DNA of 63,172 nucleotides, the filler included, from Stramenopiles sp. TOSAG23-6 (Eukaryota): NCBI GenBank assembly GCA_900128565.1. It is 37 parts of 37 records of this genome, joined end to end, with 100 filler letters (N's around TTAATTAATTAA, not from the genome) between each part and the next. Parts side by side here need not be neighbours in the genome. Positions count along the whole stretch, not along the records: positions 44,569 to 46,172 come from LT638809.1; 36 more parts are not named here. The stretch is one strand, 5' to 3'. Position numbers and translations under genes: made by a program. Shown here piece after piece: positions 4,203 to 61,474 of the stretch. The first letter of the stretch is position 1; every line of letters begins with the position of its first letter. A model generated the notes under the pieces. It saw only the letters and a program-made list of their open reading frames with translations, did no database searches and was not told the origin of the DNA.

Positions 4203-4548
4203 TGAAGTCCAAATCTAACGTAACGATGATAATAATATATAAATGCGAATCAGAGATCGGACAGTGAAGCTTATTATCTTTACTGTTTGTTGCCGCCATA
4301 GATGCCATCAAAGGGAATTTCAATATTCAAGTCAAAATTTTGATTTAACGGACGTTCCGTTGCGGTTTTTCACCGTAGATCTCTAAATCGTCTAAAAATA
4401 TTTAATCTTGGAACGTAATCTGAAGCCGATCCTAATTCGTTATTATTTTCACATACAGAGCTCCTAAGAAAGAAGTGTCGACCTTTTTGGACTATCATAT
4501 AATAGTTTTTCCTTAAGGTATTGTGTGTACGTAGACACTCGATATAGA

Positions 4549-4971: not shown

Positions 4972-5162
4972 GTATGTTTTATTATTTTTTTTTTACAATG
5001 AATTTTTTTTTCATACGAAATTTTGTACCTAACAAATTTTTTTAGATTTTTTTTTTGAAATANNNNNNNNNNNNNNNNNNNNNNNNNNNNNNNNNNNNNN
5101 NNNNNNTTAATTAATTAANNNNNNNNNNNNNNNNNNNNNNNNNNNNNNNNNNNNNNNNNNNN

Positions 5163-6781: not shown

Positions 6782-7040
6782 NNNNNNNNNNNNNNNNNNN
6801 NNNNNNNNNNNNNNNNNNNNNNNNNTTAATTAATTAANNNNNNNNNNNNNNNNNNNNNNNNNNNNNNNNNNNNNNNNNNNNTTGAAATATTTTTTTTTTT
6901 TGAAATATTTTTTTTTTTTTGAAATTTTTTTTTTTTTAAACTTTTAAAATTTTTTTTTTTTTTTTCATAATTTTTTTTTTTTTTTCACACTATTTTTTTT
7001 TTCTGGTACAAAATTTCATACCTAACAAAAACACACTCAA

Positions 7041-20714: not shown

Positions 20715-22164
20715 TGAAAGCTACGGATAAAATGAATCGTCTTATGAAAAATGCAGGAAAAAAAATCACCTCACATGTGGGAAAGAATAAAGATGTTCAT
20801 TTTTCTTCTAAAACTAAAAGAATGTATGTTTTCATCAATTCTAACTAATTATAGATAATGACGTACCTCAATGTTTTTTTTAATCTACATTTTTTTTATA
20901 GGAAATTTCGTACCTAACAAATTTGAAAAAAAAAATATACTTTTTTACAATGTGTGGTCGCAACATTTGAAAAAGATTCACATAATTTGAAACAAGTAAC
21001 TAGAAGTGGTTTGTCTCTGTTGATGCAAAGTCTTCAGCACGTAGAAAACAAAGCGAGTCTTCGAATTGTTCATTCAACAATATATCAGAAACATGTCGCT
21101 GTCAAGCATGTACATTTTNAAAATTGAATTTCAAATGTATATATATTTTTCATACTAAATTCCGTACCTAACGATTTTTTTTCGGTANAAAAAAAANATA
21201 TTTTTTCACAATACAGGGACATGTAGAAGAAGATCCCGATCCNACAAAATCAAGTGCAACTCAGCAAAATCTCGCTGCAGCTTCAATTATTGTTAATGCT
21301 GTGATGGATTTCAATACGGAAGTACGTTTTCATTATGAATTTTAAATTTCTTTTTTTTTATTCAAAACAAAATATACTAAACAAATTTCAAATTTGATAT
21401 AATTCCCCAAAATACATGTATTCTACTCTATGGACTGTGCTGCGGAAATTGTACTAGAAGATGGCAAAAATGTTGTAGTAGATACGACAGATGATATCTA
21501 TGGAAAAGAAGCTTCAGAACTTGTATCTGAAGTTGCTGAAGCACTCACTGATGATATATCTGTTGCTGGTACAATGTGTAAAATGGCAAGCATTGCCTCG
21601 TGTGGTACAACCACTGTAGTTGTAGGTATTGGCAAAAGCGCGATACATTTGAAAAATCGTTCAGAATGGGCGTCAGGCGATATCATTCAACAAGGGTTTA
21701 TGTACAGTTTACTTCCTCGAGAGTTATCAGATGTAATTAAAGTTGCTAAAAGTGTAAGCAAAAGCACAAAAGAAAAGGCAACCAATTTTTATCATCAAGG
21801 TCTGGAAAGTTTTCAAAAAATAAAAAAACAAACCTGGTTTCGCAAGGGTAAAGCAGTAGCTGCTGCAAAAGATCATGAAACACCTAAAACAACGAAAAAC
21901 AATGCGAAGGATATTATCGTACATGAAATGGATGGTGTAACAAAAGAAGCGGATGTAGTTGTGAATGTTGCAACAAAAGTGATTCTAAAATGGACCAAAG
22001 TCTGTATGTTTTATTTTTTTTTCAACTTCGTTTTTTTTTTCGTACGAAATTTTGTACCTAACGAAAAACAAATTGAAATATTTTTTCATAATATATGGTG
22101 TATTTTACGACAGGACACCTTTGCTGTATTTCAGGAAAAGCCAAAAAAAGATAACGCAGAAGAT
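20715..22164 (+). CDS. Multi-exon protein with PH-domain start; introns 20824-20955, 21110-21216 (AG), 21322-21417, 22004-22096
   Basis: Splicing restores KWTKV-W-CILRQDTFAVF (PH beta1/beta2 WxKxWxxL); the second W codon is formed across a GT-AT junction. Confidence 0.65.
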
Positions 22165-24294: not shown

Positions 24295-24524
24295 TTAGCG
24301 GCGTCTAGCCTTAGCAGAAACAGCTTTTGTTCCTTCACGGAAACCGTTTTTAAAGCGGCGGCTCATAGTCTTGAGGTGGCGCATTCTACCGGTACCCTGA
24401 GTGCGACGGCGGAGTGCCAACCACACTTACCTTTCTGGATGTGGTATGCACGACGACCACAACGACGACATGTGACGTGTGTCTTGGATGTGCGTTTTCC
24501 GAACGATGATGTACCCTTGGTCAT
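24295..24524 (-). pseudogene. RPL37: 60S ribosomal protein L37 with internal deletion and frameshift (or assembly error)
   Basis: [31 protein letters not shown] in one frame and [26 protein letters not shown] in another; the CGYP...YNW..K segment is missing at 24418/24419. Confidence 0.85.
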
Positions 24525-25285: not shown

Positions 25286-25783
25286 AACTCACATAAGTGG
25301 AACATCAACGTTTAGTTTTAAGCTAAAGGTGCTTCAGACGAAACCAAATTCATATCAGGATCTTCAATCTGCTGAGGCATGAATTTCAAATTTATTTATG
25401 TTTTGTACCAAATTTTGTACCTAAGAATTGTTTTTCCTGATTGAAGTTTGCTCAATTCCACTACTTCTTTTACACATATTGACTTGGTTGCATAATGTAC
25501 AATTCACGGATAGTCTTTATCTCTACATTCTCTTTTTTTATCTTTTTTTCGCTCTCGATTCTCGTGTTTCGCTACTTTCTCTCTTCCCCATACCATCTTG
25601 GTCCGGGTTTCACTTATAGGCTATAAACAGTATTAAATACAGAAAAAAAGTACAAANNNNNNNNNNNNNNNNNNNNNNNNNNNNNNNNNNNNNNNNNNNN
25701 TTAATTAATTAANNNNNNNNNNNNNNNNNNNNNNNNNNNNNNNNNNNNNNNNNNNNTTTTTTAAATATTTTTTCACAATACAT

Positions 25784-26364
25784 GGCGTGGTGTATCCCTG
25801 GGAAGTTTTTAGTGATAGCACTAAAGCTAAAGAAATGACAACACATGTACGTTTTCAGTATTCATCTCAATTTCAAATTATTTTTTCGTACCAAATTGTA
25901 TACCTGACTTTTTTTAACTAAAAGAAATATTCTTTCAACAAAATATGTATATTTTTTTTTTTCAAAAAATTTCGTATCTAACAAAAACAAAAACAAAAAT
26001 ATTCTTTCACAAAATATGCTGAGGATACAATAGAAAATTTCCCGAGGGATATGCAGTGGGGTCAAGGAATTCAACTTGTAGATGATCATGTCGCATCCGA
26101 GCGACTTTTTAAAGAAGAAGCTGAAAGTGATGGTACATGTCGTGTACGTTTTTATCATTATTTTCAAAAACTGTTTACAAACAATTCTGTACCTAACGAC
26201 TGTTACAATTTCAAATATTTTTCATATTTTATTCTCGTAGCGTTCCTTTGGAAGTAACAAAAGGAGAGTGGATTGAAGTGATTGTTAAAATTGCAAAGGA
26301 TGGTGTTTTGATGCAGTGCTTGATAGAAAAAGTTACAGATGAAGGAGATGCTATTCATGAATAA
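25784..26364 (+). CDS. Three 3' exons of a hypothetical protein, possibly the beta-barrel end of an arginine methyltransferase
   Basis: Open frame after GT-AT splicing; RDMQWGQGIQL resembles PRMT THW-loop region (weak). Confidence 0.4.
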
Positions 26365-26601: not shown

Positions 26602-27370
26602 TTACATTTCAAATAACACGTAAAACATCCACCATCTTCAGAAAATAATACGTCTGATATCCATTGAAGTTGTTTAGGTCGTTTCAGCCAGTTTCGCATT
26701 GCAGGTTTTAGTTTTGGAGGTCCACTTGAATATATTGTGAAAAATATTTCAAAAGTTTTTTGTTAGGTACAAAATTTCGTACGAAAAAACAAAATAAATT
26801 CGAAATTGAAAAAAAATAAAACATACATGACGCCCAACACCAGTTATAAATTGCACACGTCTAAATCCATGATGAATCGCAAGTTCTATAGCTGTCGATG
26901 AAATATCAGTAGCTTCTCTTGCATAGAGCATATGTAAATCAATTGTTACGATGATTTTTTGATAATGAAATTTCTTTACAATCCCTGCAGTTTGGCTAAT
27001 TATAAAATTAAATAAAGATTCAATGTTATGGTCATTGTTATATGCACGAAATATCAAGTCTGCAGCTCTTGTATCCATCACTTTTGCTGTTTTCTTTGCG
27101 ATATTTCCTTTTTCAACGATGTGCTGATAGGCATTACCTCCGTATATCTTTCGTGATTTGTGTGCAGCGACTGCCGCTTTTGATTTACATTTCAACATTT
27201 CAAATCTCATTTTATTTGCATTTCTACGGTATATTGCAGCCTTTTTCAATAACTCCTTTCTGTAATTTTCACTTAATTTTGGTGTATCAAAATGATATTT
27301 AGGGGTATAATGCTTCAAGACTTTAGATTGTGTCGTCGGGGGGGCAATATTTGAAATTGAATCTGTACTA
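26602..27370 (-). CDS. Smr (MutS2 C-terminal) domain protein; GT-AT intron 26730-26826
   Basis: TIDLHML..REA...ITGVGRH|SSGPPKLKPAMRNWL. Confidence 0.85.
26730..26826 (-). other. Representative non-canonical GT-AT intron with conserved core and branch motif
   Basis: GTATGT...TTCGTACGAAATTTTGTACCTAAC...CACAATATAT; restores the Smr GRH|S motif; next AG is out of frame. Confidence 0.88.
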
Positions 27371-27506: not shown

Positions 27507-28528
27507 ATGTAATCTAACATGTTTCTTTCTCTCCGAACCAGCTAAATCCACTACACGCAACATTCCCTGAAGGGATCCATCAGTAATATTTCTTAAAGTT
27601 ATTCTCAATATAGCATGAGATCGGGACGATTCAGGATTGTTACCAGTGGCAGCTGTAGCTCGTTCGGCGGAGCCTTTGCGCACAATACTAATTGCCTCAT
27701 CAACGCTATTTGCGGCAACTTCTGTGAGACCTATTACATTAATATGGCCATCTTGATCAGTTCTGAGAGTAAGTTGATTCCGAGAAGAAAGCAGATCTAA
27801 ATTAAGATCTCCTTGATTTTCAAAAAATGAAATAAGCATATGCACACCAGATGGCATCGCAGTATATATGTCTCGTATGGCTTGCTCCTGTATATAGGTG
27901 CACGTGTAAGTCTTCCCACTACCGGTCTGTCCGAATGATAGAATTGTACAAATACCACAATCTAAGCATCGGGAAATCAAAGGGGAGACTAAAACTTTAT
28001 ATATATTAGCATTATTAGCACTAGCTCCAAATGTGTGATCAAATATCTGTCGTTTAGCACTAAGTTTTCCAGTGAAAAGACCAAGTTTTTCTTCTTTTCC
28101 GTGAAGGTATGTTGCTGGATTACATGTATTTTGGAAAATATTTTACATTCAATATTTTTATTAGGTACAAAATTTCGTATGAAAAAAAAATTCGAATTTG
28201 AAAAAAAATAAAACTAACAGCACGTAATACAGTCAAAGTTTGAGTTTGAAACTACTTCTCCTAAATTTGATAATACGGGACGTTTACGAACACATACCAA
28301 AATATTATTTCTTGAGCCCTCATTTCCCTGGTGAGGTTGAGTAAGGCTGGTTACATTTTCTGCACGCCAACAGTCAACTTTTTTCACAAAGTCGAAAGTT
28401 TCCGGATCAGCCGCTTTAGTATCTCGCCTTACTTCCATTAAAGAGGACAAAGCTGAATCGTCAGGTACAGCCGATAAACCCCGCTGTGCTAATGCTGCCC
28501 GCATGCGCTTTTCTTGGATTGTATTCAT
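27507..28528 (-). CDS. Kinesin motor protein (kinesin-13-like), 3'-partial; intron 28124-28218
   Basis: VCVRKRP, FGQTGSGKTYT, NPESSRSHA, VDLAGSER. Confidence 0.92.
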
Positions 28529-29044
28529 TGCTTCCTTTTTTTCGAAGACTTTTCGTTTTGTTGATTCGACTTGATGATCTCGAGGATATCGAGTCTCGAG
28601 AGACGACGAGAGTGATACTATAAAATATGACAGCGCAAAACGCGCGCAGGTCAATTTTTGACCGCCCCTAACCCTAAATACTATACGGTACAAAACAAAA
28701 AATAATTTCAAAAATATGAAAAAAGTAAATATTTTTTGTAGATAATATAGATTTTATATTGTCAACCATTACATAGGTTGCATGTTCTATTAAGCATCAT
28801 TTCCTACTTAAACGAAATTTTTATGAATCTCCAAAAAATGCAGGAGAGACAAAGCAAATGCAGTTGCAAAACCATCTCTTTTTTTTTTTTTTAACACGTA
28901 CAGAGCGTGCACTCTCTAACTGGATGCAAAATACTTTATTTGCCCATCCATCTATTGAATCTTCTGAATTTTTTTTATAATTACTTCTATTACAATTATC
29001 TATTGAATCTTCTGAATTTTTTTTATAATTATTTCTATTACAAT

Positions 29045-30796: not shown

Positions 30797-30951
30797 NNNN
30801 NNNNNNNNNNNNNNNNNNNNNNNNNNNNNNNNNNNNNNNNTTAATTAATTAANNNNNNNNNNNNNNNNNNNNNNNNNNNNNNNNNNNNNNNNNNNNTCGT
30901 ACGAAATTTTGTACCTAACAAATTTCGAATTTAATTTTTTTTACAATACAT

Positions 30952-32423
30952 GCGCATAAAAGGTCTTTTTGATTTAATGCAAAATCCTGAAACCTTAGTC
31001 ATGCCTACTATTGAACAGGTGTATGTACGTTTTCATCATGAATTTTAAAATTATTTTTTTTTTGGTACGAAATTTTGTACCTAACGATTTTTTTACTAAA
31101 AAAAATATTTTTTCACAGTATATGACGATCTTTGTTATGGAGATCGTATCTACCAGTGGCTTTGTTATGGATTTTTATGTTGCCCTGAAAATTTAGGTGA
31201 TAAATTAAAAAAAACATGCGTACCTCTTTTACCATTATTGAAATCAGTTTTAGAAGATGGTTTTATTCTTCCTGTATTTCGTGATAAGACTCTTATGATA
31301 CACAGTAGTTTGGACGAGATGTATGTTTCTTTCTTGTTTTATGTTTTTTTCTTGATGTTTTATGTTTTTTTTATGTGTTTTTATGTTTTTTTTATGTGTT
31401 TTTATGTTTTTTTTATGTGATTTTATGTTTTTTCTGTTTCGCTCTATTTTTTTCAATAGAAAATTTTGTACTTAACGATTTCTTTTTACATTTTTCACAA
31501 TACATGGTATTGTTGACTAAGAAATTAATGAATCATGACTTTCATAAAACTGCAGCCCATAAAATTATTGGTGAAGCTGAATTTGTAGCTGTAGAAACAA
31601 GTGCCACGTGTCATGCAGACCATCGAACGTACCTTCGAATTTCAATCGGATCACTTGTTAATTTAATTCGTGAATGTCCAGGTACTTTAGGCCCGAAGTT
31701 TCCATTGGTATTAGCAGCACTATCTGTTTGTCGTCAAGAACTTGATTGGTATTTTCGACATCTTGGAGCTGAACCAAAAAAACACACGGGTTGGTTTTCA
31801 AAAGAACCTAAACATGTACGTTTTTGTTAGGTACAGAATTTGGTACAATTTTTTTTTTTTTTTTTTTTTTGTATGATTTTTTTTTTTTTTTAAATTTGTA
31901 CCTAACAAATTTAATTTTTGTTTGAAATATTTTCATACAATATATGATCACGGAGACTGGAATGATCCTCAAATTTCTGAATTAATATTTCTGTCCATGG
32001 AACTTCAAGGTGAATGTCGCAAGGGATATCGCCTCATCGCTCAGTATCATATTAAATTTCTTGCTGGTGCTATGACGAATGACGTTAAAGAAGGCTCAAA
32101 AATTCTAAATTCACATCCAGTTTGTGTAAGTCTTTTCGAAAAGTTAGTTAGTAATTTAGAATCTCTTTCATCAATTGGTGACATCTCTGATCCCAAGATT
32201 GAAGGTAAAATACATAATACGTTACACGAAATCAGAACAACTTGGTTTCAAATAGAGGGTATCATTTCTGATAATTCATCTCGTTTTCATCAGTTGAAAG
32301 GCGATTCAAAAGAAGCTTTGTCCCAATTAATGCGTAAAATGACAAAAGTGTGCCGTCATTCTCGCTTTGTTGACTGTTTTGAAGATGAGATGGTCCGTCA
32401 CGTTTCATTATCAGAACTTTTAT
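30952..32423 (+). CDS. NCKAP1: NCKAP1/NAP1/Hem subunit of the WAVE/SCAR complex, internal exons; GT-AT introns 31025-31123, 31321-31505, 31816-31945
   Basis: QWLCYGFLCCP, LPVFRD, HADHRTYLR, PGTLGPK...ALS....E..WY.RH, D..ISELIF. Confidence 0.88.
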
Positions 32424-32721: not shown

Positions 32722-33634
32722 GTGCTGCATCGTTTTTAACTTTTCAAAGGCGTGAATCCGATTTTGAATTTATAGGTGTTGATTTCATCGCTGATGCGAC
32801 AACTGGATATGCGTACTTAATTGAATGTAACTGTCCACCGGATAATAAAGGATCAGTTGAGACCAAGGGTATTTTTTTTTTAGTACGAAATTTTGTACCT
32901 AACGATTTTTTTTTTCAAAATTTTTTTAGTACGAAATTTCGTACCTAACGATTTTTTTTTTTTTTTTTCAAATTTTTTTATATATATATATATATATATA
33001 TTTTTAGTTCTCATGATTTTTTTTTTTTACATAGTAAGTATATCACGAAATACATGAAATATTGTTGAGGAATTTCATCAAGGACTTTTCTCAGATTTGG
33101 TACAAACTTTCGTAGTTATACCTATCGTTAAAAAAAGAGCTCCGATAAATAACAAAAGAAACCCTACAAATAATATAAGTTTTCAAAATTAAATTTCAAA
33201 TTTAGTTTTTTTTTTCATACGAAATTTTGTACCTAACATTTTTTTTTTTTAAATATTTTCCTACATTTTTTCCCGATACAAATGAATGTGGATTATGGGA
33301 AAAAGTGGGCGAATTAAGTTCGAGTGATTGCAAAACACATACTCCAAATGTCGTGAATGAAATAATTCTGAAGAAAAAATTGAAAAAAAATGAAAAAAAT
33401 ATGGAAAAAAAAATTGAAAAAAAAATTGAAAAAAAAAATGGAAAAAAAAATGTTGAAAACCCTAACCCTAAAGAACCACAAGTCAAAGATGGTTTTACCT
33501 TTACTACATCAATTGAAGCTGAGTGTAAAGGAATTCTTGCAAGAAATCGATTACAATGGTTATTATATCAACGTAAAGCAATGAAACAACAAAAACACGA
33601 AATCCTAAAAAAAATCGAAACAATAAAAAAATGA
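32722..33634 (+). CDS. Tubulin-tyrosine ligase (TTL/TTLL) family, C-terminal exons
   Basis: FEFIGVDFIAD...AYLIECNCPP (ATP-grasp ExN motif). Confidence 0.8.
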
Positions 33635-34372
33635 AAAAATAAAATATTTTTTTTTTAACAAAATTTTTTTTTATTTTGAATCAAAAAAATTAAAAATTAT
33701 TCTGGAAGAATTTCGTACATACCTGTCGCACTACAATCATCATCCGTTTCTATTTCTATACTATTACTACTATTGCTAGTAGGGTTAGGGTTATTACTAC
33801 TATTATTAATAGTCCAAGTAGGGTTAGGGTTATTATTAATAGTACTAGTAGGGTTAGGGTTAGGTGATACTTCATATGCCCCAATGGCACAAAACTGGCT
33901 TTGTATATTTTGAGGGTTTACATCTGTAGTTGAAATATCATTTGTCTTTGAATAATTTTCCGTACTTATTTGGTACGAATCTGAATTTTGTATTGTGTGT
34001 GAAATATTTGTACTTTCATATAAGGATAAATTTTGGATATTTTCTTTTTTTTCATTTGGAACAAACATGTTTTTTGAAAAGTCTTGAATTTGCCATTCTT
34101 GTTCATTTCGTTTATTTTCGATATTATTTGTTACCGTTGATAACTCATTTTTATCACAGTGAGCATATATGTATCATTAAAAAAAAAAAAAAAAATTAAA
34201 TTGGTTAGGTATGAAATTTTNNNNNNNNNNNNNNNNNNNNNNNNNNNNNNNNNNNNNNNNNNNNTTAATTAATTAANNNNNNNNNNNNNNNNNNNNNNNN
34301 NNNNNNNNNNNNNNNNNNNNTACGAAATTTTGTACCTAACAAATTTCGAATTTAATTTTTTTTACAATACAT

Positions 34373-35037
34373 GTCGTACGTTGGTTTGAGAGGCTCGGTA
34401 GTCCTCCTACTAAGAACTTTGAGGATGTAAGGAACAATATTAATGATAATATCAATGAAATACCTGAAGATTTGGATCCTATTTTTCGTTTGATTTTTCA
34501 AGAGCAAATGCCATATACGTTTTATTTTTTTTTCAATTTGGATTTTTTTTTTCATACGAAATTTTGTACCTAACGATTTTTTTTTGGAATATTTTTCCAA
34601 AATACATATGTGCAGAGTGTAGTAAATGCAATTGACGACTATTGTGAAAAAAATCCAAATGCGAAAAGAGTACGTTTTCATTTCAATTTCGAATTTATTG
34701 TTTTTCGTGCGAAATTTTGTACCTAATGATTTTAATTTTTGAAATATTTTTCATAACCAATGTCCCTCGAGCTTTAGGTTCTACAGATTTTATCGTTGGA
34801 AAAAAATTAGGTAATCGAAAGTTAGTCACTTTTGTCCAGTGGAAAGCACAGAGAGCTCGGGATGCATATGAAGAAGCAATCGATCATGGAGAAAGTAAGA
34901 CTGCCATTTATGATTGGTTTAAACGAGTTCAGGAAGATAAAATAGATTTTGATGCGGAAAAAATAATTCCTCGCATTTCTAACAGATTGACTAGAGTAAA
35001 TTTTGAAGAAGTTAGAGAGTTGAAAAACACAAAGTAG
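34373..35037 (+). CDS. C-terminal exons of a possible glutathione-S-transferase-like protein; introns 34515-34607 (AT-AT) and 34670-34761 (GT-AT)
   Basis: Open frame after splicing; RVPRALG...F.VG...G.R...FVQWKAQR..DAY. Confidence 0.45.
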
Positions 35038-41158: not shown

Positions 41159-42589
41159 AATAAAAATAAAATACAAAATGAAATGTGTAAAAAAACATTT
41201 GAACTTGACCAATTTGATCCTTTATCATCATATGCATTCTCAAGACCATTTGAACATGTCAAATTTACACAATATTTATTTACAACGGGTACCGGGTCCA
41301 CCTGGGCAATTATTAATAAAGATGAATTAGAAAATTCTGGATGTCAGGATAAGCAAGTTGAGGTAGGGTTGGGGTTAGGGTTAGGGGAAGAGGGTGATAT
41401 TACTGGACCTGATGTGTATACATATAATATACCAAATACACGAAATATGAAAAATACACGAAATAATGAATTTCCAAAAGCAATTGATATTGAACGAAGT
41501 TATCATCGTAATATTCATGGCTATTTATTAGGGGGATGTGAAAATGGTACAAATTTAAGTACAAATTTAAAAAAAAATTTTAAAAAAAATTCAAAAAAAA
41601 ATTCAAAAAAAAATTTAAAAAAAAATTTAAAAAATGATCAATTTGTAATTTATTTAGATGAATCGATAGAAATTCGACCAGGTGTGTTTAAAAGAGGTAA
41701 AGAAATTATATACGCAGAAGGACATTCAATCATGTACGTGTTTCAATTTCGAATTTATTTATAATATATATAATTTTTTTTTTTTTTTTTTTTTTTTTTT
41801 TGGAAGGAAAAAAAATTTTTAATTTTTTCCTAAATTTTTACTTTTAATTTTTTTTTTTTTTTTTTTCATTATACATTTTACATTTTGAACCATTATTGAA
41901 CATTCAAAGAAAATAAATGAAAATAAAACTCAACAATCAAATCAAAGTCTTTACAATTGAACTCATTTGTCCTTTTTTTTAAATATTTTTTCACATTCTA
42001 TGAAAGGTTTAAGTACAAAAAAGTTTCTACTTGAAGATGGATTTAATGTTTGGATTCGAAATGGAAATGCCATTGACGGTTACACAAATCCATTTCAGAA
42101 AAACCCTAACCCTAATAATAATGATGAAAATGATGATAATGATAATAATAATGATGATAATAATGATAATGATGATAATGATGATGATAATGATGATGAC
42201 TATTCATATGATGAAAAAATTACTGAACTGTTCGATGATAACATCGAGAATACACGAAATATACAAAATAATGATTCTACAAAGAATATTACAATGACGA
42301 TTCAAAGTAATGGTAAAAAAGTTCAATTATTTGTTCCTTCAACAAAAACAGCAGGTATTTTTTTACAATGTTCAAATCAAAAAAAAAAAATTGTAGATTT
42401 TTTTTTTCTATTTTTTTTTCGTAGTACATTTTGTACCTAACAAAACAACATAAATTTTTTAAAAATATCACAACACATTACAAAAGATGCTGCACAAGAA
42501 TTTTGTACTGGTATGAACAAACACGAAATATGTAAAATTGCCATAATAAGAGAAATCAAAAGACTTCGTGAAGAAATGGAAGAGCCCTA
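41159..42589 (+). CDS. Low-complexity hypothetical multi-exon protein
   Basis: ORFs 41183-41764 and 41967-42440 separated by poly-T intron-like segments; D/N repeats. Confidence 0.4.
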
Positions 42590-45026: not shown

Positions 45027-46080
45027 ATGATGGCATATACAGTCGCTAGACGTGGGTTTTGCTCAGCACGAACTCTCTTGAAAGACAATCTTTGTTTGAC
45101 TTTTCCTGGTCAAGGGACTCAATACTATGGTATGGGCAAACAACTTTGTCATGATTTTCCTTTTGCGCGTTCTATTTTTGAACAAGCTGATGAAGCTCTT
45201 CAATATAACTTGTCTCGTCTAATGTTTTCAAGTCCCACTGACAATAACGACGACCAATCAACTTGTCTCTCTCAAACAGAGCATGCACAGCCTGCAATAT
45301 TAATACACTCCATCGCTACTCTTGCAATATTACGTGAAGAATGCGGATTAAATTTAACTTTTGATTCTGGGGTTGACAGTGCTGTCTCCGTAGTCCTTGG
45401 ACATTCTTTGGGGGAATATACTGCACTAGTTGCTTCTGGGTCGTTATCTCTAAGTGAAGGTGTACAGTTAGTACGATCAAGAGGTTTAGCGATGAGCAAT
45501 GCAGTTCCCAATGAAATAAAAACGTTAATGTCTGCTATGATGCCTACTACACGAAATGCTGTTTCTGAACTAATCCAGGAAGTTTCTAAAAACTTGGGCG
45601 AAGGACATGTTTGCAATATTGCTAATGTCAACTCAAGAAAGCAAGTTGTAATTAGTGGAACTAAAGCAGCTGTGGAGTTAATTGCCAAATTGGCCAAAGA
45701 AAGAAAAATATGTTTGTTTTCATCATTGAATTTCAAATTTGTTTTTTTTTTCATAGAAAATTTTGTACCTAACAAAAACAAATATTTTTGAAAATATTTT
45801 TTCACAATACATGTCGCAAAAGTATACCCTTAAAAGTGAGTTCAGCATTTCACTCCGATTTGATGGCTCCAGCAGTAGAAGAGTTGAAATTGGCCCTTTC
45901 AAATGTTTCTATTAAAACACCAACAATTCCAATTATATTTAATGTAGATGCGTTGGAACGTCCTCATAATGCAAAGATATCTATCGAGGGTAATGTAGAT
46001 AATATAGAGTATACTGATGATGTCGTTAAAAAATTATTACTCCGACAGATGGTTTCACCTGTTCTATGGCTAGATTCTAT
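45027..46080 (+). CDS. fabD: Malonyl-CoA:ACP transacylase (mitochondrial-type); GT-AT intron 45712-45812
   Basis: FPGQGTQ, AQPAI, GHSLGEY, QVVISG, I|CRKSIPLKVSSAFHS, SPVLW. Confidence 0.95.
45712..45812 (+). other. GT-AT intron in fabD
   Basis: T|GTTTGT...GTACCTAAC...CACAATACAT|GT; no AG between branch point and junction. Confidence 0.88.
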
Positions 46081-46272
46081 GTATGTTTTATTTTTTTTTT
46101 AAACAAAAAAATTCGATTTTTTTTTCATACGAAATTTTGTACCTAACAAATTTTAGTTTTTTTTTTTGAAATNNNNNNNNNNNNNNNNNNNNNNNNNNNN
46201 NNNNNNNNNNNNNNNNTTAATTAATTAANNNNNNNNNNNNNNNNNNNNNNNNNNNNNNNNNNNNNNNNNNNN

Positions 46273-48123: not shown

Positions 48124-49227
48124 ATCTCATCCGCTAAAATAGAGGATCGATTTTGAATCCAATTAAAAATTAACCAATTGACACCTTCTACTTGATAATC
48201 ACGAAGAACAAGACCTCTTTTTTTTGAATATGGACCAGAATTAGCAGTATAGAAATTATTTTCGATTTGTTTTGATTTTTTGTTTTTTTTCTTTTGATGA
48301 TGTTTTTTAGATTTTTTTTGTACTAGAAAAAAATCATCAAATTGTTTTTCTAGTCTTAATTTGTGTCTATTATATATTGATATAATTGTTGTATCATTAA
48401 TATCCTCAATTGTTTCCCATGAACATGTATTTTGAAAAAATAGTTCAAAAAAATCTAAAAAAAAATTGTTAGGTACAAAATTTTTTTACGAAAAAAAAAC
48501 AAAAAAAAAAAAATAATTTTGAAAAAATATTTTGAAAATTTTTTTACGAAAAAAAACCAAAAAAAAAAAATAATTTTGAAATTCATGATGAAAACAAACA
48601 TGAATCATATCCTAACGATCCACCCCATTTTACTAAATATTCATATTTTGGTTGTTTTTTATTTGTAGGATATTTTTGAAATGGTTTATTTCCATTTTTT
48701 TTACATTTAGGGCAAAACCAATTTTGATCTTGGCAATTATCTATAGTATAATCTACACAAATTTGATGATACGTCATATCACAACCATCACAATATACAA
48801 TATCTTCTCCATTATCATATATTTTTGGAAAATATTTGAAAAAAAAAAAAACTGTTAGGTACAAAATTTCGTATGAAAAAAAAAAAACATAATAATTTGA
48901 AAAAAAAAATATTTGAAAAAAAAAAAAAAATGTTAGGTACAAAATTTCGTATGAAAAAAAATATTATAATAATTTGAAAAAAAAAAAAAAAAAAACATAC
49001 TCCTCCTTGACACACAGAACAAGTAAACTTCCCACCACATTCAAACGCACTACATATAAATTTACCTTTTGGAATTTTTTTTAATCCTATACATTGTTGA
49101 TGATAGGCTCGAGAACATTTTCCTTCACAAATGACATTTATTTTGGGAAAATATTTAAAAAAAATTTTGAATTTCAAATTTGTTAGGTACAAAATTTTTT
49201 TACGAAAAAAAACCAAAAAAAAAAAAA

Positions 49228-49279
<52 letters not shown>

Positions 49280-49519
49280 ATACATGCCTTGTGGAAAAAA
49301 AAAATTTTGAATTTAAAATTTTTTAGGTAAAAAATTTTTTTACAAAAAAAAACCAAAAAAAAAAAAATTTTTTTTTTTTTTTTTTGAAAAATAAATAATA
49401 AAAATAAATAATAAAAACGTACAATATCATTACCCTCAGACGTATCACCACCACCACATAAACAACAGAATATATCTTCTTCTTCGTCGTCGTCCTCATC
49501 AGCAACACGTTGACCAACA
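48124..49519 (-). CDS. CHD-type chromatin remodeller fragment (two PHD fingers, chromodomain, SNF2 start); introns 48425-48599, 48817-49000, 49136-49422
   Basis: [86 protein letters not shown]...SILADE. Confidence 0.92.
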
Positions 49520-51381: not shown

Positions 51382-51464
<83 letters not shown>

Positions 51465-52110
51465 CGAAATCGAACAATATGTTAGGGTTAGGGTTGTTAG
51501 GGTTTTCTGCATTATGAAAACAAACATGAGAATAATACAGGCTCTTGAGATACAACACCAATGTTTCGTCGTAATGCAACAGGACCACCAGGATATTCGC
51601 GAATATTACGACCCCCAACAAAAATATCGCCATGTAATTTTAGGAAAATATTTCAAAAAAAAAATTGATTTTTTTGTTAGGTACAAAATTTCGTACGAAA
51701 ACCATAAAAAAAAAAATTTCAAATTCAAATTTTGAAAACGTACATCTAAAGGGTCATATAATCGACTAATTAATGCAGTGACTGTCGATTTCCCACATCC
51801 ACTGCCACCGACTAATGCCAGATGATGCCCTGCCGGGATTTTTAATGACAAATTTGAAAGTACAGGTACAGACCTGCGCGTCGGATATGAAAAATGAATA
51901 TTTTTTAATTCGATCTCGCCAAGGTTAGGATTATTTGGATTATTTTGATTATTAGTTTTAACAACAATGTTTTTATATTCTTCTTCTATTTTTTTCTCTT
52001 GTTTTGAAAATATCTCAAAGTCCATTGGAATTTTCTTCATATCAACAGGAGAAGTCATTGAAGGTATTCTATCTAAAATTGTAAATAAACGTGAAGATGT
52101 TTTGTGAAAA

Positions 52111-52145
<35 letters not shown>

Positions 52146-52219
52146 GAAAAAAAAAAATTTGTTTGGGAAAAAATTTTTTTTTAAAAAAAAATTTTTTCCC
52201 AAACAAATTTTTTTTTTTC

Positions 52220-52254
<35 letters not shown>

Positions 52255-52268
52255 TTTTCACAAAACAT

Positions 52269-52839
52269 CTTCACGTTTATTTACAATTTTAGATAGAATA
52301 CCTTCAATGACTTCTCCTGTTGATATGAAGAAAATTCCAATGGACTTTGAGATATTTTCAAAACAAGAGAAAAAAATAGAAGAAGAATATAAAAACATTG
52401 TTGTTAAAACTAATAATCAAAATAATCCAAATAATCCTAACCTTGGCGAGATCGAATTAAAAAATATTCATTTTTCATATCCGACGCGCAGGTCTGTACC
52501 TGTACTTTCAAATTTGTCATTAAAAATCCCGGCAGGGCATCATCTGGCATTAGTCGGTGGCAGTGGATGTGGGAAATCGACAGTCACTGCATTAATTAGT
52601 CGATTATATGACCCTTTAGATGTACGTTTTCAAAATTTGAATTTGAAATTTTTTTTTTTATGGTTTTCGTACGAAATTTTGTACCTAACAAAAAAATCAA
52701 TTTTTTTTTTGAAATATTTTCCTAAAATTACATGGCGATATTTTTGTTGGGGGTCGTAATATTCGCGAATATCCTGGTGGTCCTGTTGCATTACGACGAA
52801 ACATTGGTGTTGTATCTCAAGAGCCTGTATTATTCTCAT
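52269..52839 (+). CDS. ABCB-type ABC transporter NBD fragment; GT-AT intron 52622-52733 (mirrored copy on minus strand)
   Basis: [40 protein letters not shown]. Confidence 0.93.
52666..52689 (+). repeat. Dispersed conserved intron core TTCGTACGAAATTTTGTACCTAAC (representative copy; dozens in the window, oriented with the host gene)
   Basis: Visible directly, and as recurring peptides VRNFVPN / SYEILYLT in the ORF track. Confidence 0.97.
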
Positions 52840-52900
52840 GTTTGTTTTCATAATGCAGAAAACCCTAACAACCCTAACCCTAACATATTGTTCGATTTCG

Positions 52901-52983
<83 letters not shown>

Positions 52984-55025: not shown

Positions 55026-56293
55026 TTAAAGCATATATTCATCGCGCAAAGCATTAGCTAAATAATCAACCTTCAATTGCTCTTCGATATCTTCAAAATA
55101 AACAAATTCCATCTTTTGTATTTTGGAAAAATATTGCAAAAGAAAAAAATTTTAATTTGTTAGGTACAAAATTTCGTATGAAAAATAAATTCAATTTCAA
55201 AATTAAAAAAAAAAATAAAACATACATCATTCTCTAAAAATTGAATACGTTGCTGCAATGCGCTAAGCGTAGCATCACATGTATTGTGAAAACATATTTA
55301 AAAAAAATTGTTAGGTACGAAATTTCGTATGAAAAAAAAATAAATTAGAAATTCATATCAAACGTACATTCTCTATCGATATATTCTTTATATCGTTTTG
55401 GACTACATCCCTTATCTCTCCTTGGAATATAGTATAGGAAAATATTTTTAAATGTTTTTTGTTAGGTTCAAAATGTACAAAAAACAAATGAGGTAAGACA
55501 TTTTGCATTTTGAAAAAGTACATTCCCCATAGACATTCTTGTATCAAGATAATGTATTTTAGAAAAATATTTCAAAAAAAAAATTGAAAAAAATCGTTAG
55601 GTACAAAATTTCGTACGAAAAATAATTTCGATTTTTTTTTTTCGGTAAAAAAAAAATAAAACATACATACCTTCCCTAGGACTTACCCGTCGCTTGGCGT
55701 CATGAGTGAGAAATGCTCGAGCCACTTTTTCAACTTTGGATATATTGTAAAAAAATATTGTTCAAAATTTTTATTTTTTTTGTTACGATATACATTTTTC
55801 ATAGTAAAAAAAAATTAGAAATTTCATTTTTCATAGTAAAAAAAAATTAGAAATTTAATTTCATTTTTCATAGTAAAAAAAAATAGAAATTTAATTTTGA
55901 AAACTGTACAATAGCCTGGAGGTAAAGGTGGTACCGTTGTTCTCAAATGTGGTGGTATCAGCGATTTTTTGTCTGTTTCCCAAGGATGTGGTAAACCTAG
56001 TAACTCATAATTTGTGAAGAAATATTTGAAAAAAAATGTTTTTTGTTAGGTATACAATTTTGTAAAAAAATGAATTTTTTTTTTTTTTTTTCGTAAAAAA
56101 AAAACCTACATATATTGTACAACCAATTCCCCAAATATCAGCTTTTCTATAATCATACACCGGTGATGTTTCAGAAGCACTGGCTACTTCTGGGCTCATA
56201 TTAGCTGGATTACCTTCCCGCGTACTAGGCAATAATGTTTTACAGCTGCATCCGAAGTCTATCAGTCTAATCTCACCAACACGGTGAAGCATT
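55026..56293 (-). CDS. Ser/Thr protein kinase, C-terminal part in seven exons
   Basis: IRLIDFG, NMSPE, DIWGIGCTIY|ELLG.PHPW, LTHDAKRRVS; introns include 56007-56109 (GT-AT); 30-nt exon at 55522-55551. Confidence 0.9.
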
Positions 56294-56481: not shown

Positions 56482-56878
56482 TTTAAAATTTTTTTTTCGT
56501 AGGTAATTTTGTACCTAACATTTTTTTTTTTTTAATATTTTTTTTTAGACATTCAATTGACAGGAATTGAAATCCCTGGAGCCATGCATGGAATTATGTT
56601 ACCAGGTAACCTGAGATCTTCAAAATCGTTACCCGGTCAACTGTATGAAAATGCAACACAAGAGAGATTTCGTGATCAGATGATTGATCGCATTAACACT
56701 GCTAGTACTTTATTACGACAACAAGCTTTTATTGATCGATCATACTACTCAAAAACAACACCTGATTTAGTTCGTTTACAATTTGAATTAATTTGGTTAG
56801 AAATTAGTATGTTTTTTTTTTCAACTATTTTCCAAAATTTTTTTTTTTTTTTTTTCATACGAAATTTTCATAGTAAAA

Positions 56879-56914
<36 letters not shown>

Positions 56915-57338
56915 TTTTTTAAAATTTTTTTCACAAATTATTTTTACTATGAAAATTTCGTATGAAAAAAAAAAAAAAAAAATTTTGGAAAATAGTTGAA
57001 AAAAAAAACATACTAATTTCTAACCAAATTAATTCAAATTGTAAACGAACTAAATCAGGTGTTGTTTTTGAGTAGTATGATCGATCAATAAAAGCTTGTT
57101 GTCGTAATAAAGTACTAGCAGTGTTAATGCGATCAATCATCTGATCACGAAATCTCTCTTGTGTTGCATTTTCATACAGTTGACCGGGTAACGATTTTGA
57201 AGATCTCAGGTTACCTGGTAACATAATTCCATGCATGGCTCCAGGGATTTCAATTCCTGTCAATTGAATGTCTAAAAAAAAATATTAAAAAAAAAAAAAT
57301 GTTAGGTACAAAATTACCTACGAAAAAAAAATTTTAAA
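56482..57338. repeat. Inverted duplication (fold-back chimera, centre ~56910)
   Basis: Same exon on both strands. Confidence 0.88.
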
Positions 57339-57978
57339 TTTTTAAATTACATAAATTAGGGTTAGGGTTAGTATAACATACATACTATCATATATTGCAA
57401 GTAACGTTGATCTTGGTAAATTATCACCCATATATTGTGGAGATATATTTTATACTTGATTGTTTTATTAAGTATACAATTTGGTACAAAAAAAAAAAAA
57501 AAAAATTAAAAAAATTAAAAAAAAAAAAAAAAGTCTAAAAATTTAAAAAAAAAAAACATACAATGGCTGTGGTGGAGGATCACAATTTTCATTTTGTTTG
57601 ATCCAATCCATAACTGTCATTTTTTTCTTTACAAGTGGATTATGCATTGATGTATTCAACAAAATTGTTGTATTGTGAAAAAATATTTTTTTTTTTAATT
57701 TTATTAGACACAAAATTTTATTTTTTCTGTAAAAAAAAAAAAAAAAAAAAAAATTTAAATTTTTAAATTTTGTTAGGTACAAAATTTCGTACGAAAAAAA
57801 AAAAAAAAACTTCAAAACATACTTGAATAGGATAAAAAGTAAACAGTATCAGGATGTGAAAAACATCCTGGATTATCTAAATAGTATTGTTCTGAAAAAG
57901 CCACAATTAGACGTTCTATTTTTTGTGCTTCTTTAGGTAACATAAAACCGCCAAATGATGAAACGAAATATTTCAATA
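57012..57978 (-). CDS. Sec7-domain ARF-GEF fragment; intron 57668-57822 (GT-AA) plus two GT-AT introns
   Basis: FMLPKEAQKIERL, DTVYFLSYS|TILLNTSMHNP.VK.KMT, GDNLPR..L..IYDSI. Confidence 0.92.
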
Positions 57979-58026
57979 TTTTTTTGTTAGGTACAAAATT
58001 TTTTTAAAATTTTTTTTCATAGTAAC

Positions 58027-58079
<53 letters not shown>

Positions 58080-58179
58080 NNNNNNNNNNNNNNNNNNNNN
58101 NNNNNNNNNNNNNNNNNNNNNNNTTAATTAATTAANNNNNNNNNNNNNNNNNNNNNNNNNNNNNNNNNNNNNNNNNNNN

Positions 58180-59777
58180 ATCTGTTACAATAGCAGCACG
58201 GTATTCATATTTTAGATCGTGAATACGATGTCTTCCTGCAGTCCAAGATATATCTGTAATATCCAGTGTGTACTCACTGTTTTTAATATAGTTATTATAT
58301 CGTTTTGCTGTGGAAGGAATGTTTTTATGGTGTGTAGTAGAAATTGGGATAATACAAACTTGATCTTTGTACTTTGGATTTCTAGACTTCTCTTTGGAGT
58401 TCCTTGAGACCTGATATTGTTGGAGAACAACATGCGCATTTGTTCCACCAAATCCGAAGGCACTTGTTCCGACGACTGTTCGACCTTTAGTTGGTCCATC
58501 ATTTAGAGTCTCTCCCTTTGTGATTATATGGACACCCATCTCATCAAACGGTATATGCTCATTCGGGGTATTCATGTTGAGGCTTGGAGGTATCCAATTA
58601 TGATATAAAACAAGCACCGTCTTCAATATATTGGCAATTCCTGCCGCAGCTTCTAAATGTCCTATATTCGTTTTGACACTACCTACTCGCAATGGTCCTT
58701 CTTTATAGACCGATCGTCCGCAATTTTGGACAAATACACGTCCTAAAGCAGTCAACTCAATTGGATCACCAAGTTTAGTACCAGTACCGTGTGCTTCAAT
58801 ATACGCCACATCCGCCGGCGATATTTTTGCATCCTTATATGCTTTATCCAATACATTTTCCTGTGACGCGGGATTTGGAGCAGTTAGTCCATTGCTGCGA
58901 CCATCTTGATTGACTGCACTTCCTCGTATTACAGCATACACTATATCATCATCTCGAGATGCATTCTCAACTCTCTTGATAACTACCATTCCACAGCCTT
59001 CGCCACGGGCGTATCCATTCGCTAGATTATCACCAAATTTCACTTTATTTTCTGGCGAAAGCATTCCTGCGGCTCGAAATGCAGAATATGTGCGGGGATT
59101 AAAAAGAAGATTTACTCCTCCTACTAAAGCGGAGTTAATATCCCCACTCCTTAATGCTTGTATGGCATTATGCAAAGCTACTAATGAAGAAGAGCAAGCT
59201 GTATTTATACTGACACTTGGACCCTGAAGGTTAAATGTGTAAGATATACGATTTGCAACAATACTTAAGTCAGTTCCAGTTCCTACAAAAGGGCTGTCAG
59301 TATCTAAGCTAGTGATATTATGATAATCACACGCAGAAACACCCATGAAAACTNNNNNNNNNNNNNNNNNNNNNNNNNNNNNNNNNNNNNNNNNNNNNNN
59401 NNNNNNNNNNNNNNNNNNNNNNNNNNNNNNNNNNNNNNNNNNNNNNNNNNNNNCAATACGTTGTTGTGGGTCCATTTGACATGCTTCTGCATGAGAAATT
59501 CCGAAAGCGGCTGCATCAAAACTCGATATAGTTTTTTCTGACAAAAAAGCCCCGCCTCCTCTAAGGTTAACACGATAAGATGGAGGGGTGTTGGACATTG
59601 CACTTACACCTTTTCTTAGCATTCTCCAAAATGCCTCAGGTGAATCCACTGATCCTGGGAAACGGCAGGACATACCCGTCACCGCAATCAAAGATTTATT
59701 AAAATGTGTATGTCTGGGTAGTTTAATGACTTTTAATCTATTCGGTTTATCAACAGTATTGGAATTGTCTTTCTCGG
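58180..59777 (-). CDS. Type I polyketide synthase ketosynthase domain plus KS-AT linker
   Basis: MSCRFPG, MDPQQR, NTACSSSL, EAHGTGTKLGDPIE, KTNIGHLEAAAG, SAFGFGGTNAH. Confidence 0.95.
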
Positions 59778-60223
59778 NNNNNNNNNNNNNNNNNNNNNNN
59801 NNNNNNNNNNNNNNNNNNNNNTTAATTAATTAANNNNNNNNNNNNNNNNNNNNNNNNNNNNNNNNNNNNNNNNNNNNCTTCTCGCGACGTCCATGCGGCT
59901 TGCTCCGATTGGTCAACACACTGACAAACGACCAAAATGTATTCCTGATACATCTTTGACTACATTAAAAGATAAAGATGTGGGACTACAGAAGTCAACA
60001 GTAGTTCAACGTGTAGAAGATAATGCCCCCCTGAGTGCACTGGAAACACAGGAGTTAGGAAAATCACTATATATTGCGGCTTCTCNNNNNNNNNNNNNNN
60101 NNNNNNNNNNNNNNNNNNNNNNNNNNNNNNNNNNNNNNNNNNNNNNNNNNNNNNNNNNNNNNNNNNNNNNNNNNNNNNNNNNNNNNNNNNNNNNNNNNNN
60201 NNNNNNNNNNNNNNNNNNNNNNN

Positions 60224-61474
60224 CTTCTCGCGACGTCCATGCGGCTTGCTCCGATTGGTCAACACACTGACAAACGACCAAAATGTATTCCTGATACATC
60301 TTTGACTACATTAAAAGATAAAGATGTGGGACTACAGAAGTCAACAGTAGTTCAACGTGTAGAAGATAATGCCCCCCTGAGTGCACTGGAAACACAGGAG
60401 TTAGGAAAATCACTATATATTGCGGCTTCTCATAGAGATACTTTTACAGGTGAAAAAGATATTGGTGAGTGGGTAGCTTTTGAAAGTGATAGAATTGCAC
60501 CATTTGGTAAGCGAGTAGGCGTTAAACAGCATAAATATGGAATTGGAAAGCTAATTGTACTTTTTTTTTTTTTTTCGAAATTATTTATTTTTTCATAGAA
60601 AATTTTATTCTCGACGATTTTTTTATCCAACAAAAAAAAACAAATATATATATATATTCACAATACATGATGTGTGTGTTGATCAAAATCCTCCAAAGAT
60701 TTGGCGGACTGGAAGTATCATTAAGTTTACAAATACTTCAATATTTGTAGAGTTTTGTGACAAATTACCTACCAAAAGTAGTTTTTTTAATTACATGGGT
60801 GTTGGTGGCAATAAGTCACCTGCAAATATTTGGATTGATTGTGTAAAACATAAAACATGTTTGTTTTTTTTTTTTTNGAATTTCATTTTTTTTTTTTTGA
60901 ACCAAATTTTTTACCTAACAAAAAACAAATATATTTTTCACAATACATGTCTTGCTCCTGCGTTTACAATGGCGAAAGCTGCAGATAATCAATTGACTGA
61001 AGGTGCATTGGTTGCTAGTGTCAGCGATGTTTCATTTCGGAATTTGTTAGAAAAACATGGAGGATTTAAAGTGTATGATATAGAAGCTGATGGAAATTGT
61101 TTATTTCGTGCAATTGCACATCAAATATTTGGTGATGTTTCCATGTGTCATGTATTTTTTTTTTTTCAATTTCAAATTTTTTTTTTTATAAAAATTTCGT
61201 ACCTAACAAAAACAAAAACAAAAATATTTTTTCACAATACATGTAATGAGAAAAAGATGTTGCGATTATATGGAGGCAAACGAATTGTATTTTTGCCAAT
61301 TCATTGAGACTAAGTGTAGTCATGTTGATGTAGGAAAAAATCAAAATGATCAAATTTATCAAATTGATCAAAATAGTATTGATATTACTGAAATGAAAAC
61401 CAATGAAATAATACAAAACAATGAAATAGAAAAAAACAATGAAATAGAAACAAACAATGAAACAAAACAAACCA
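60224..61474 (+). CDS. OTU-domain deubiquitinase (OTUD5-like); GT-AT introns 60557-60668, 60859-60948, 61152-61242
   Basis: ADGNCLFRAIAHQIFGD...H|VMRKRCCDYM..N..YF..FI. Confidence 0.88.

Follow-up and report, generated by a model that had tools for sequence, protein, structure and literature searches.

The genes in a 63,172-base window from the assembly GCA_900128565.1 of Stramenopiles sp. TOSAG23-6 (the window being the whole stretch of DNA that we analysed, filler included) are interrupted by short, AT-rich introns, the focal one lying in fabD, the gene for malonyl-CoA:ACP transacylase. These introns are a single repeat family, present in many copies and in sense orientation within the genes, and their 3' end is not AG. 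In our reading, to which we assign a probability of about 0.7, they are a high-copy, introner-like family of non-coding elements (about 101 nt, 18% G+C), which are excised as GT...AT introns. Elements of this family would make up essentially all introns in the contigs sampled from this organism, and each copy would bring its own signals, namely a yeast-like donor GTAYGTTTT, a branch-type box TACCTAAC, a T-rich tract and a 3' block CAMAATACAT. The copies would leave the pre-mRNA by a spliceosome-type reaction at the GT...AT boundaries, and the family may have spread by copying itself into AT/G sites (here and below, a slash marks a junction); because the copying would target AT/G, both junctions would read AT/G and one AT would be kept in the mRNA. 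We infer that the family is mobile.

The window is not one locus. It consists of 37 pieces of 1,597-1,622 nt each, arranged in descending size and joined by linkers of the form N44-TTAATTAATTAA-N44 (for example 1623-1722 and 46173-46272), and since the pieces are unrelated contigs, the adjacency of genes holds no information on synteny. Pieces 3 and 4, 7 and 8, as well as 27 and 28 are identical pairs, and the unique set is 34 contigs comprising 54,732 nt.

One repeat family

The box TACCTAAC occurs 72 times in the window, against 0.95 occurrences expected from shuffled sequences. Alignment of the introns over their whole length gives the order (AT)GTAYGTTTT, T-run, AATTTCRAATTT, T-run, TTTCRTACGAAATTTYG TACCTAAC, T-rich stretch, GAAATATTTTT and CAMAATACAT; the conserved blocks seen in multiple alignments extend over the entire intron and include two, AATTTCRAATTT and TTTCRTACGAAATTTYG, without any known role in splicing. 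With a profile of 20 introns, 79 matches are obtained in the window (E<1e-3), 72 of them within the unique 54,732 nt (about one per 760 nt), where they are distributed over 24 of the 34 contigs. Among the genes with matches are those for FabD, kinesin, leishmanolysin, Nckap1, an ion channel, an H+-pyrophosphatase (H+-PPase), an ABC transporter, a kinase and Smr. Complete introns number 33, with lengths of 71-177 nt (median 101 nt) and 18% G+C; TACCTAAC or a variant with one mismatch is present in all of them, followed by a T-rich tract, and 30-52 nt (median 39) separate the branch-type A from the intron's 3' end.

All 93 of the 30-mers that are common to at least two unique contigs lie inside family elements, one such 30-mer being present in seven contigs, and contigs 19 and 21 share an exact match of 53 nt, which ends exactly at the 3' junction. 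Subfamily-specific variants are common to introns of unrelated genes. At least 13 of the 68 contig ends fall no more than 6 nt from a match boundary (about 3% per end would be expected by chance), and this clustering implies that the assembler broke at the family repeat. With the exception of one fragment, all family matches have the same orientation as the reading frames beside them. A conserved RNA fold was not detected (RNAalifold consensus energy -0.18 kcal/mol); what is conserved is the primary sequence, as expected for copies of one element.

An introner-like origin had been suggested in an initial annotation of the focal intron, and it gains considerably from the whole-length repeat family, its subfamily variants, the exact stretches of up to 53 nt, the contig breaks and the copies in metagenomes described below. 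The strongest of this evidence, the relation of the introns over their whole length, was absent from the original argument. The accompanying view that any such origin would be old is contradicted by exact stretches of 30 to 53 nt across genes and by one pair of introns which is 94% alike.

Two of the conserved internal blocks are DNA palindromes, namely TTTCGTACGAAA, and AATTCGAATT within AATTTCGAATTT (for example 26775-26800 on the minus and 22035-22062 on the plus strand). These blocks can pair mutually (AATTTCG with CGAAATT), no covariation in favour of an RNA helix being found, and a protein-binding role is conceivable. Tandem duplication of the TACCTAAC core inside single introns was observed at 32869-32985 (plus strand) and 48817-49000 (minus strand), the repeated units measuring about 46 and about 78 nt.

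The intron in fabD

The upstream reading frame of FabD meets a stop inside an AT-rich block, which is bordered by two copies of ATGT (45710-45713 and 45811-45814), the site reading aaaaat ATGT ttgttttc...TACCTAAC...cacaatac ATGT cgcaaa. The interval first annotated, 45710-45814, covers both copies. Removal of 101 nt gives the in-frame joint ...AKERKI/CRKSIPLKVSSAFHS, and the joined product shows no gap across the junction in comparison with nine of nine FabD homologues; because the removal restores the frame and a gapless FabD alignment, we regard the intron as real. Owing to the two ATGT copies, an identical mRNA would result from any of five cuts, AT..AC, TG..CA, GT..AT, TT..TG and TG..GT, which differ by shifts of -2 to +2. 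GT..AG is not among them, and no cut at an AG in fabD preserves both the frame and the alignment.

Splice junctions and choice of cut

Donor and acceptor sites were located by matrices trained on intron letters only, and the exon flanks were read afterwards; as the sites were chosen on intron letters, the counts on the exon side are independent, whereas those on the intron side are partly circular. At two of the 47 donors the flank is not exon, another intron ending directly before them. On the exon side, positions -2/-1 are AT in 32 of 47 cases (9.6% in the background of long reading frames, p 4e-22), with T at -1 in 41 of 47, and position +1 is G in 30 of 41 (background 18.7%, p 5e-14). On the intron side, GT opens 44 of 47 introns, and the further donor letters, which were used in the choice of sites, are A at +3 in 43, G at +5 in 40 and T at +6 in all 47, giving a donor consensus GTAYGTTTT of an extended U1/U6 type. 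The intron ends in AT in 37 of 41 cases, while AG, GT, AA and TT occur once each.

The initial annotation had described exons ending in AT before the donor and introns ending in AT, and both descriptions agree with these counts. It had also named G or GT as the usual continuation, of which the G is borne out and the T is barely above chance (13 of 30 after a G, 26% expected, p 0.059). ATGT on both sides, claimed for four genes, was found again in fabD, leishmanolysin and both introns of the OTU-like gene; the CHD gene of that list was not found.

Which of the equivalent cuts is used may be judged from introns in which the flanks differ. Six complete introns follow an exon end of TT or CT, where AT...AC is impossible and GT...AT fits, and the least variable letters are the GT and the 3' AT of the intron, the flanking AT and G varying like exon letters. 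Exon ends other than AT precede, for example, the introns at 3587-3695, 8330-8454, 22004-22096, 28124-28218 and 2465-2641. Where the flanking frames are clear, 19 of 23 introns are in frame after removal as GT..AT, one third being expected (p 1.7e-6). Judged by their letters, the introns would thus belong to a GT...AT class rather than to a shifted pair.

Seawater metagenomes and metatranscriptomes

A search of public runs located the fabD stretch in two runs of a coded organism (A), in seawater metagenomes and, in small shares, in seawater metatranscriptomes, and the organism therefore is marine. The fabD contig (1.6 kb), the sole contig so compared, was aligned against four public runs. In a DNA run from seawater (X3) the fabD exons have a summed depth of about 1-7 and the two intron stretches of the contig have summed depths of 4,248-7,190 and 84,246-134,240, these sums not being copy numbers; altogether 2,673 metagenome contigs match the fabD contig, nearly all of them at its two introns and a handful on exons. 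These data show intron sequence at thousands of distinct places in the X3 sample. The pattern is the same in the RNA run X7, where 570 contigs match. The RNA run X11 gave no match to the fabD contig, and in the polyA run X10 two stretches of fabD exon are covered and no junction is. Ratios of exon to intron depth conflict between the RNA runs (high in X7, low in X10) and were not used.

Metagenome contigs of JGI, scanned with the family core, yielded one locus (L001), in which the copy reads aaacAT/GTATG...CACAATACAT/Gg and the frame continues for 55 codons to a stop. The same scan gave no loci in viral and prokaryote-genome contigs.

Counter-evidence and possible mode of spread

It should be noted that several observations weigh against a mobile family excised as GT...AT introns. 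Whole-intron identity has a median of 0.75, against 0.63 for shuffled introns, and of 561 pairs no more than 4.3% score above the best shuffle; because this measure separates poorly from AT-rich shuffles, we base the claim of a family on the profile, on the k-mers and on the data from outside the assembly. If old introns also look alike, strict signals rather than copying could contribute to the resemblance. Four of the 23 introns with clear frames are out of frame after removal as GT..AT; one of them is explained by its position directly after another intron (in a tandem pair), one has its donor beside NN, one involves a 59-nt exon, and 42355-42478 is without explanation. An RNA-library contig of X7 (record 17, 150 nt; 45595-45745) crosses the fabD donor unspliced, and no spliced joint 45711>45813 was seen among the 15 joints listed, the missing joint being no evidence against splicing. 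An empty site or a presence/absence polymorphism at the fabD intron was not found in the runs compared. Transposase, integrase and reverse transcriptase families were absent from the 46 reading frames and exons of the window that were scanned with Pfam, a weak point given the small sample, and no autonomous partner with the same ends emerged from it.

The remaining counter-evidence concerns the ends of the elements. The complementarity between 5' and 3' ends, as initially annotated, exists in the consensus, ATGTA(T)...(A)TACAT, with 84.8% of cells paired in 19 introns; it extends over 5-6 nt only, shows no covariation, is reached equally after shuffling of partners (84.7%), and in the focal intron, whose 5' end is ATGTTT and not ATGTAT, 5 of 6 terminal positions are able to pair. 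The pairing probability of the end helix is low (mean 0.23; at least 0.5 in 3 of 23 introns). The direct repeat at the junctions measures 3.12 nt within an intron and 3.11 nt between introns, 49% of 5000 permutations in which donors and acceptors were re-paired among introns being as high, and none of the 12 departures from AT covaries between exon -2/-1 and the intron end in the 33 complete introns of the window. A co-opted target-site duplication, the mechanism first proposed, is therefore not specifically supported. As permuted partners score alike, duplication and inverted repeat are properties of the consensus and not of single insertions, and the lack of an intron-specific repeat excludes that targets of variable sequence were duplicated, as in Micromonas or Amoebophrya. 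Moreover, a 2-bp duplication of AT fits no transposon superfamily known to us, Tc1/mariner using TA. A repartition with TA as the duplicated target (ATG-TA-[...]-TA-CAT) was rejected, since it needs an 8-nt palindromic target and deletes two codons.

An invariant AT target, a route at the RNA level into AT/G sites and a shifted spliceosomal preference are the possibilities that still fit. Copying via DNA with a 2-bp target-site duplication of AT is conceivable, though we would sooner doubt it than assume it; copying may instead have gone via RNA, by reverse splicing into AT/G or by another route. A reverse-orientation fragment at 31802-31848, the only antisense copy seen in the window, hints at insertion at the DNA level. 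The abutting head-to-tail pairs (Table 1) look as would be expected from insertion at an existing ...AT/G junction, and local duplication could also have produced them. In one of these pairs (49422-49136) the removal of both introns (287 nt) restores a PHD-finger motif (..GNDI/VICEGKC..).

An origin of the signals in the element itself is favoured by the joint shift of the exon end and the intron end from AG to AT. Exon end and intron 3' end normally are read by different factors, and a single change in U1 that touches both splice sites is a conceivable alternative cause of such a joint shift.

As for the RNA-library contig mentioned above, a related strain has the fabD intron at the same place, because this contig carries the exon/intron border. 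Compared with the fabD border it has a deletion of 1 nt and 4 substitutions, of which one turns the donor GTTTGT into GTTCGT.

Alternative explanations

The introns could be ordinary, vertically inherited spliceosomal introns, recognised by a spliceosome with long, fixed signals and with nothing mobile about them, and both ATs could then reflect a changed recognition by small nuclear RNA (snRNA) or protein, for example a U1 5' end pairing with AU/GUAUGU and touching the 3' site. A junction repeat which is purely a property of the consensus, the same boxes in every intron seen, the narrow spacing between branch and acceptor (30-52 nt) and the failure to find a transposase in the scanned frames and exons all speak for this explanation. 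It does not, however, account for conserved blocks outside the splicing signals, for subfamily variants across unrelated genes, for exact identities of 30 to 53 nt between loci, for assembly breaks in the core, or for the reverse-orientation fragment and the abutting and tandem copies. Strict splice signals normally accompany few introns, and one intron per about 760 bases is a high density for them. We consider inheritance of ordinary introns improbable.

Introns of the AT...AC class (ATGTAT...ATAC/AT), of the minor U12 type or U2-dependent and with the second AT exonic, would employ the A/C pair of terminal letters, which is known to be compatible. They would agree with the shifted reading that is possible at 32 of the 47 donors, and TACCTAAC matches 6 of 8 letters of what we take to be the U12 branch box. 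The U12 branch box generally lies about 10-15 nt from the 3' end, and the box described here is found at 30-52 nt (median 39). At 15 of the 47 donors the GT is not preceded by AT, the six complete introns with exon ends TT or CT are incompatible with such a reading, and the 5' AT is conserved to 68% and the 3' AT to 90%, which is the opposite of its prediction. GT-AT and AT-AT are known in Physarum as rare pairs of U12 boundaries, but its U12 donor motif is RTATCCTT, and not GTAYGTTTT (bioRxiv 10.1101/2020.10.12.336362). We regard this class as very unlikely here.

To a similarly small degree we would credit nonconventional introns such as those of euglenids or hemistasiid diplonemids, whose removal would depend on the pairing of their ends and not on a spliceosome. 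Borders other than GT-AG, short direct repeats at the junctions and complementary ends, which include the last two exon letters, recall such introns, and they have been described in marine euglenozoans; however, they lack conserved borders and branch motifs (PMC12621601; PMC6221363), whereas borders and internal boxes are highly conserved in the family. Its donor is U1/U6-like and its branch box U2-like, the end helix is weak and without covariation, and the nearest named homologues are not euglenozoan. An origin from a marine diplonemid, considered in view of published non-canonical introns, was dropped on account of the conserved borders and of these homologues.

DNA segments eliminated from the genome, like the internal eliminated sequences of ciliates, are barely credible: a repeat of 2 nt, short inverted repeats at the termini and the interruption of coding sequence by AT-rich blocks about 100 nt long would suit them, but standard stop codons close the frames, long frames are open under the standard code, donor and branch boxes occur in sense orientation only, the blocks are found in contigs of RNA libraries, the repeat is AT and not TA, and there is no sign of ciliates among the homologues.

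Other features of the window

The features to which the above sections refer are listed in Table 1, together with further introns of the family.

Table 1. Coordinates of the fabD gene, its introns and other family introns in the window
Feature	Position	Strand	Remarks
fabD (malonyl-CoA:ACP transacylase) exon upstream of focal intron	45027-45711	+	Acyl_transf_1, E 1.7e-21
Focal fabD intron, GT...AT reading	45712-45812	+	101 nt; in-frame join, gapless alignment to FabD
TACCTAAC, branch-site-like family core	45766-45773	+	putative branch A 40 nt from 3' end
fabD exon downstream of focal intron (..RKSIPLKVSSAFHS..)	45813-46080	+	FabD alignment
Second fabD intron (tctAT/GTATGTTTT...)	46081-46172	+	truncated by contig end inside repeat core; highest metagenome pile-up
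Family intron, leishmanolysin gene	17375-17511	-	ATGTA flanks both sides
Family intron, weak OTU-like gene	60859-60948	+	ATGT flanks both sides
Family intron, weak OTU-like gene (second)	61152-61242	+	ATGTA flanks both sides
Family intron, kinesin gene	28124-28218	-	exon end CT (tgCT/GTTAGT), AT..AC impossible
Family intron, exon end TT	3587-3695	-	gaTT/GTACAT...AAACAT/gtc; GT..AT possible, AT..AC not
Family intron, ion-channel gene	8330-8454	+	exon end TT
Family intron starting ATACGT, without GT	34515-34607	+	readable as AT..AT or, shifted by 2, AT..AC
Family intron	11594-11689	-	94% alike to 55279-55367 of another contig; subfamily-specific 5' half common to both
Partner of 11594-11689	55279-55367	-	its contig has 7 family matches
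Abutting head-to-tail pair	49136-49422	-	49422-49284 and 49283-49136; no exon between
Second abutting pair	25847-26017	+	25847-25946 and 25947-26017; head to tail
Composite intron, Nckap1 gene	31816-31945	+	first ~45 nt (31802-31848) a reverse-orientation family fragment
3' half of family intron, contig start	30897-30951	+	53 nt identical to 34321-34372
Partner of 30897-30951	34321-34372	+	another contig; identity stops at ..ACAATACATG

The pieces of the window are AT-rich (20-41% G+C) and carry eukaryotic genes. Besides FabD, these encode DENN, a WD40 protein, MutL and a type I polyketide synthase (PKS) ketosynthase; an ion channel, leishmanolysin, Smr and kinesin; an EF-hand protein, Nckap1 and H+-PPase; as well as Bmt2, a mitochondrial carrier, a kinase, an ABC transporter and a weak OTU-like match. 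The best named homologues of the fabD exon come from Mucoromycota (fungi; 41-43%), and for the H+-PPase exon two EukProt proteins are best (65% and 56%), followed by the stramenopile Incisomonas marina (47%).

No family match is present in 10 of the 34 unique contigs (1, 6, 9, 10, 12, 14, 24, 30, 32 and 35), several of which consist of one open frame of about 450-540 codons. Either the intron density is very uneven (from 0 to at least 7 per 1.6 kb) or some contigs derive from another organism. The ketosynthase lies on an intron-free contig with 40.5% G+C (58132-59829, minus strand), and its best match is a metagenome protein (61%), followed by bacterial PKS at about 43%; the contig may stem from foreign DNA that was present in the sample, or the gene may have been transferred. 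Contigs 31 and 34 (51382-52983 and 56482-58079) are internally palindromic, with the same reading frames on both strands, and resemble inverted chimeras of amplification or assembly.

A ribosomal protein L37-like gene (24366-24520, minus strand) is split into two coding blocks 35 bases apart, and a middle segment of about 26 residues, including the second cysteine pair, is missing; the spacer resembles GTAAGT...CAG, and a deletion, a pseudogene or an assembly fault could be the cause. The same contig also has family-like blocks near 24700 and at 25379-25444. Short telomere-like runs of TTAGGG/CCCTAA (the slash here separating the two strands) stand just outside genes, at times as inverted pairs (28660-28690 on the minus strand, 33784-33866 and 57355-57375), including upstream of the kinesin start, and at L001 (2270-2335) past the gene stop.

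Comparison with known introns

In Micromonas pusilla and Aureococcus anophagefferens the introners have GT-AG boundaries, and their target-site duplications of 3 nt vary between copies (PMC11282704). They resemble the present family as thousands of short, similar, non-autonomous elements that a marine picoeukaryote carries as introns in genes unrelated to one another, with short terminal inverted repeats (here a property of the consensus), a junction repeat of which one copy is, or here would be, in the mRNA, and an element-borne splice site (one in their case). In contrast, the 3' end here is AT, the repeat is always AT without a copy-specific duplication, and donor, branch box and acceptor all are supplied by the element. 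Non-canonical introners of Amoebophrya have inverted repeats of 8-20 nt and variable direct repeats of 3-5 nt, fall into many families with highly diverse border dinucleotides, and occur in a genome in which U1 snRNA was, according to that report, not found (PMC7789003). Common to both cases are a marine protist, repeated introns other than GT-AG, inverted repeats at the ends, direct repeats at the borders and the absence of an internal transposase; the family described here differs in being a single one, with fixed GT...AT borders, an inverted repeat of 5-6 nt and a U1-type donor.

In Physarum polycephalum U12 introns have expanded and a transposon origin has been proposed, their signals forming an inverted repeat rtatctt...aagATAT, which is interpreted as transposon ends that also act as splice sites, and GT-AT and AT-AT account for 17% and 8% of the non-canonical U12 introns (bioRxiv 10.1101/2020.10.12.336362). 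The mass of introns, the splice signals in the form of an inverted repeat with a 2-nt direct repeat, and the occurrence of the GT-AT pair are shared. Physarum, however, employs the minor spliceosome for these introns, their branch site lies 9-12 nt before the 3' end and their repeat is TA, whereas the present family has a GTAYGT donor, a branch box 30-52 nt upstream, an AT repeat and far greater similarity over the whole length. Nonconventional introns of euglenids and hemistasiids have no conserved borders or branch motifs, and vary widely in length and sequence (PMC12621601; PMC6221363); like the present introns they have borders other than GT-AG, direct repeats at the junctions and pairable ends, with an origin from miniature transposons (MITEs) suspected there, but the introns here are stereotyped and of spliceosomal appearance. 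Surveys of introners on a large scale begin with annotated introns, AG and AC being treated there as the familiar 3' ends, and for this reason an unannotated, fragmentary assembly with AT acceptors was probably missed by them.

Among the systems compared, the family is unique in combining one dominant family, full spliceosome-type boxes, a fixed non-AG acceptor and AT at both junctions. The fungal introner-like elements of van der Burgt et al. 2012 reportedly are near-identical introns of ordinary size, which multiply without obvious transposon hallmarks; they are said to be GT-AG introns and to have a lower copy number than the family here. A description of the family was not found in the titles and abstracts of the literature on GT-AT introns or on non-canonical splicing in uncultured marine single cells, supplementary intron tables being outside the scope of that search.

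Implications for splicing in this organism

Tentatively, and at somewhat less than even odds in our estimation, GT...AT may be the standard intron boundary of this organism, one invasive introner family forming nearly its whole intron set, with the recognition of 3' sites and exon ends shifted along with it, and AT/G replacing AG/G as the proto-splice site. If the splicing machinery co-evolved with the family, a branch-binding face of U2 complementary to UACCUAAC would be expected; Rfam at gathering thresholds gave no matches in the window, and hence offers no snRNA there with which this pairing face could be compared.

The 3' AG belongs to the most constant signals of eukaryotic gene expression. 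If our reading is correct, about 90% of the introns sampled have an AT end and all are copies of one element, and they would constitute a natural experiment on the extent to which the second splicing step can be directed to a new target, on how a selfish element rewrites the splicing code of a genome, and on whether it is the inserting element, and not the spliceosome, that makes proto-splice sites. The family repeat breaks short-read assemblies at introns, as in this window, and gene finders based on GT-AG would mis-model almost every gene of this organism and of its relatives in marine metagenomes.

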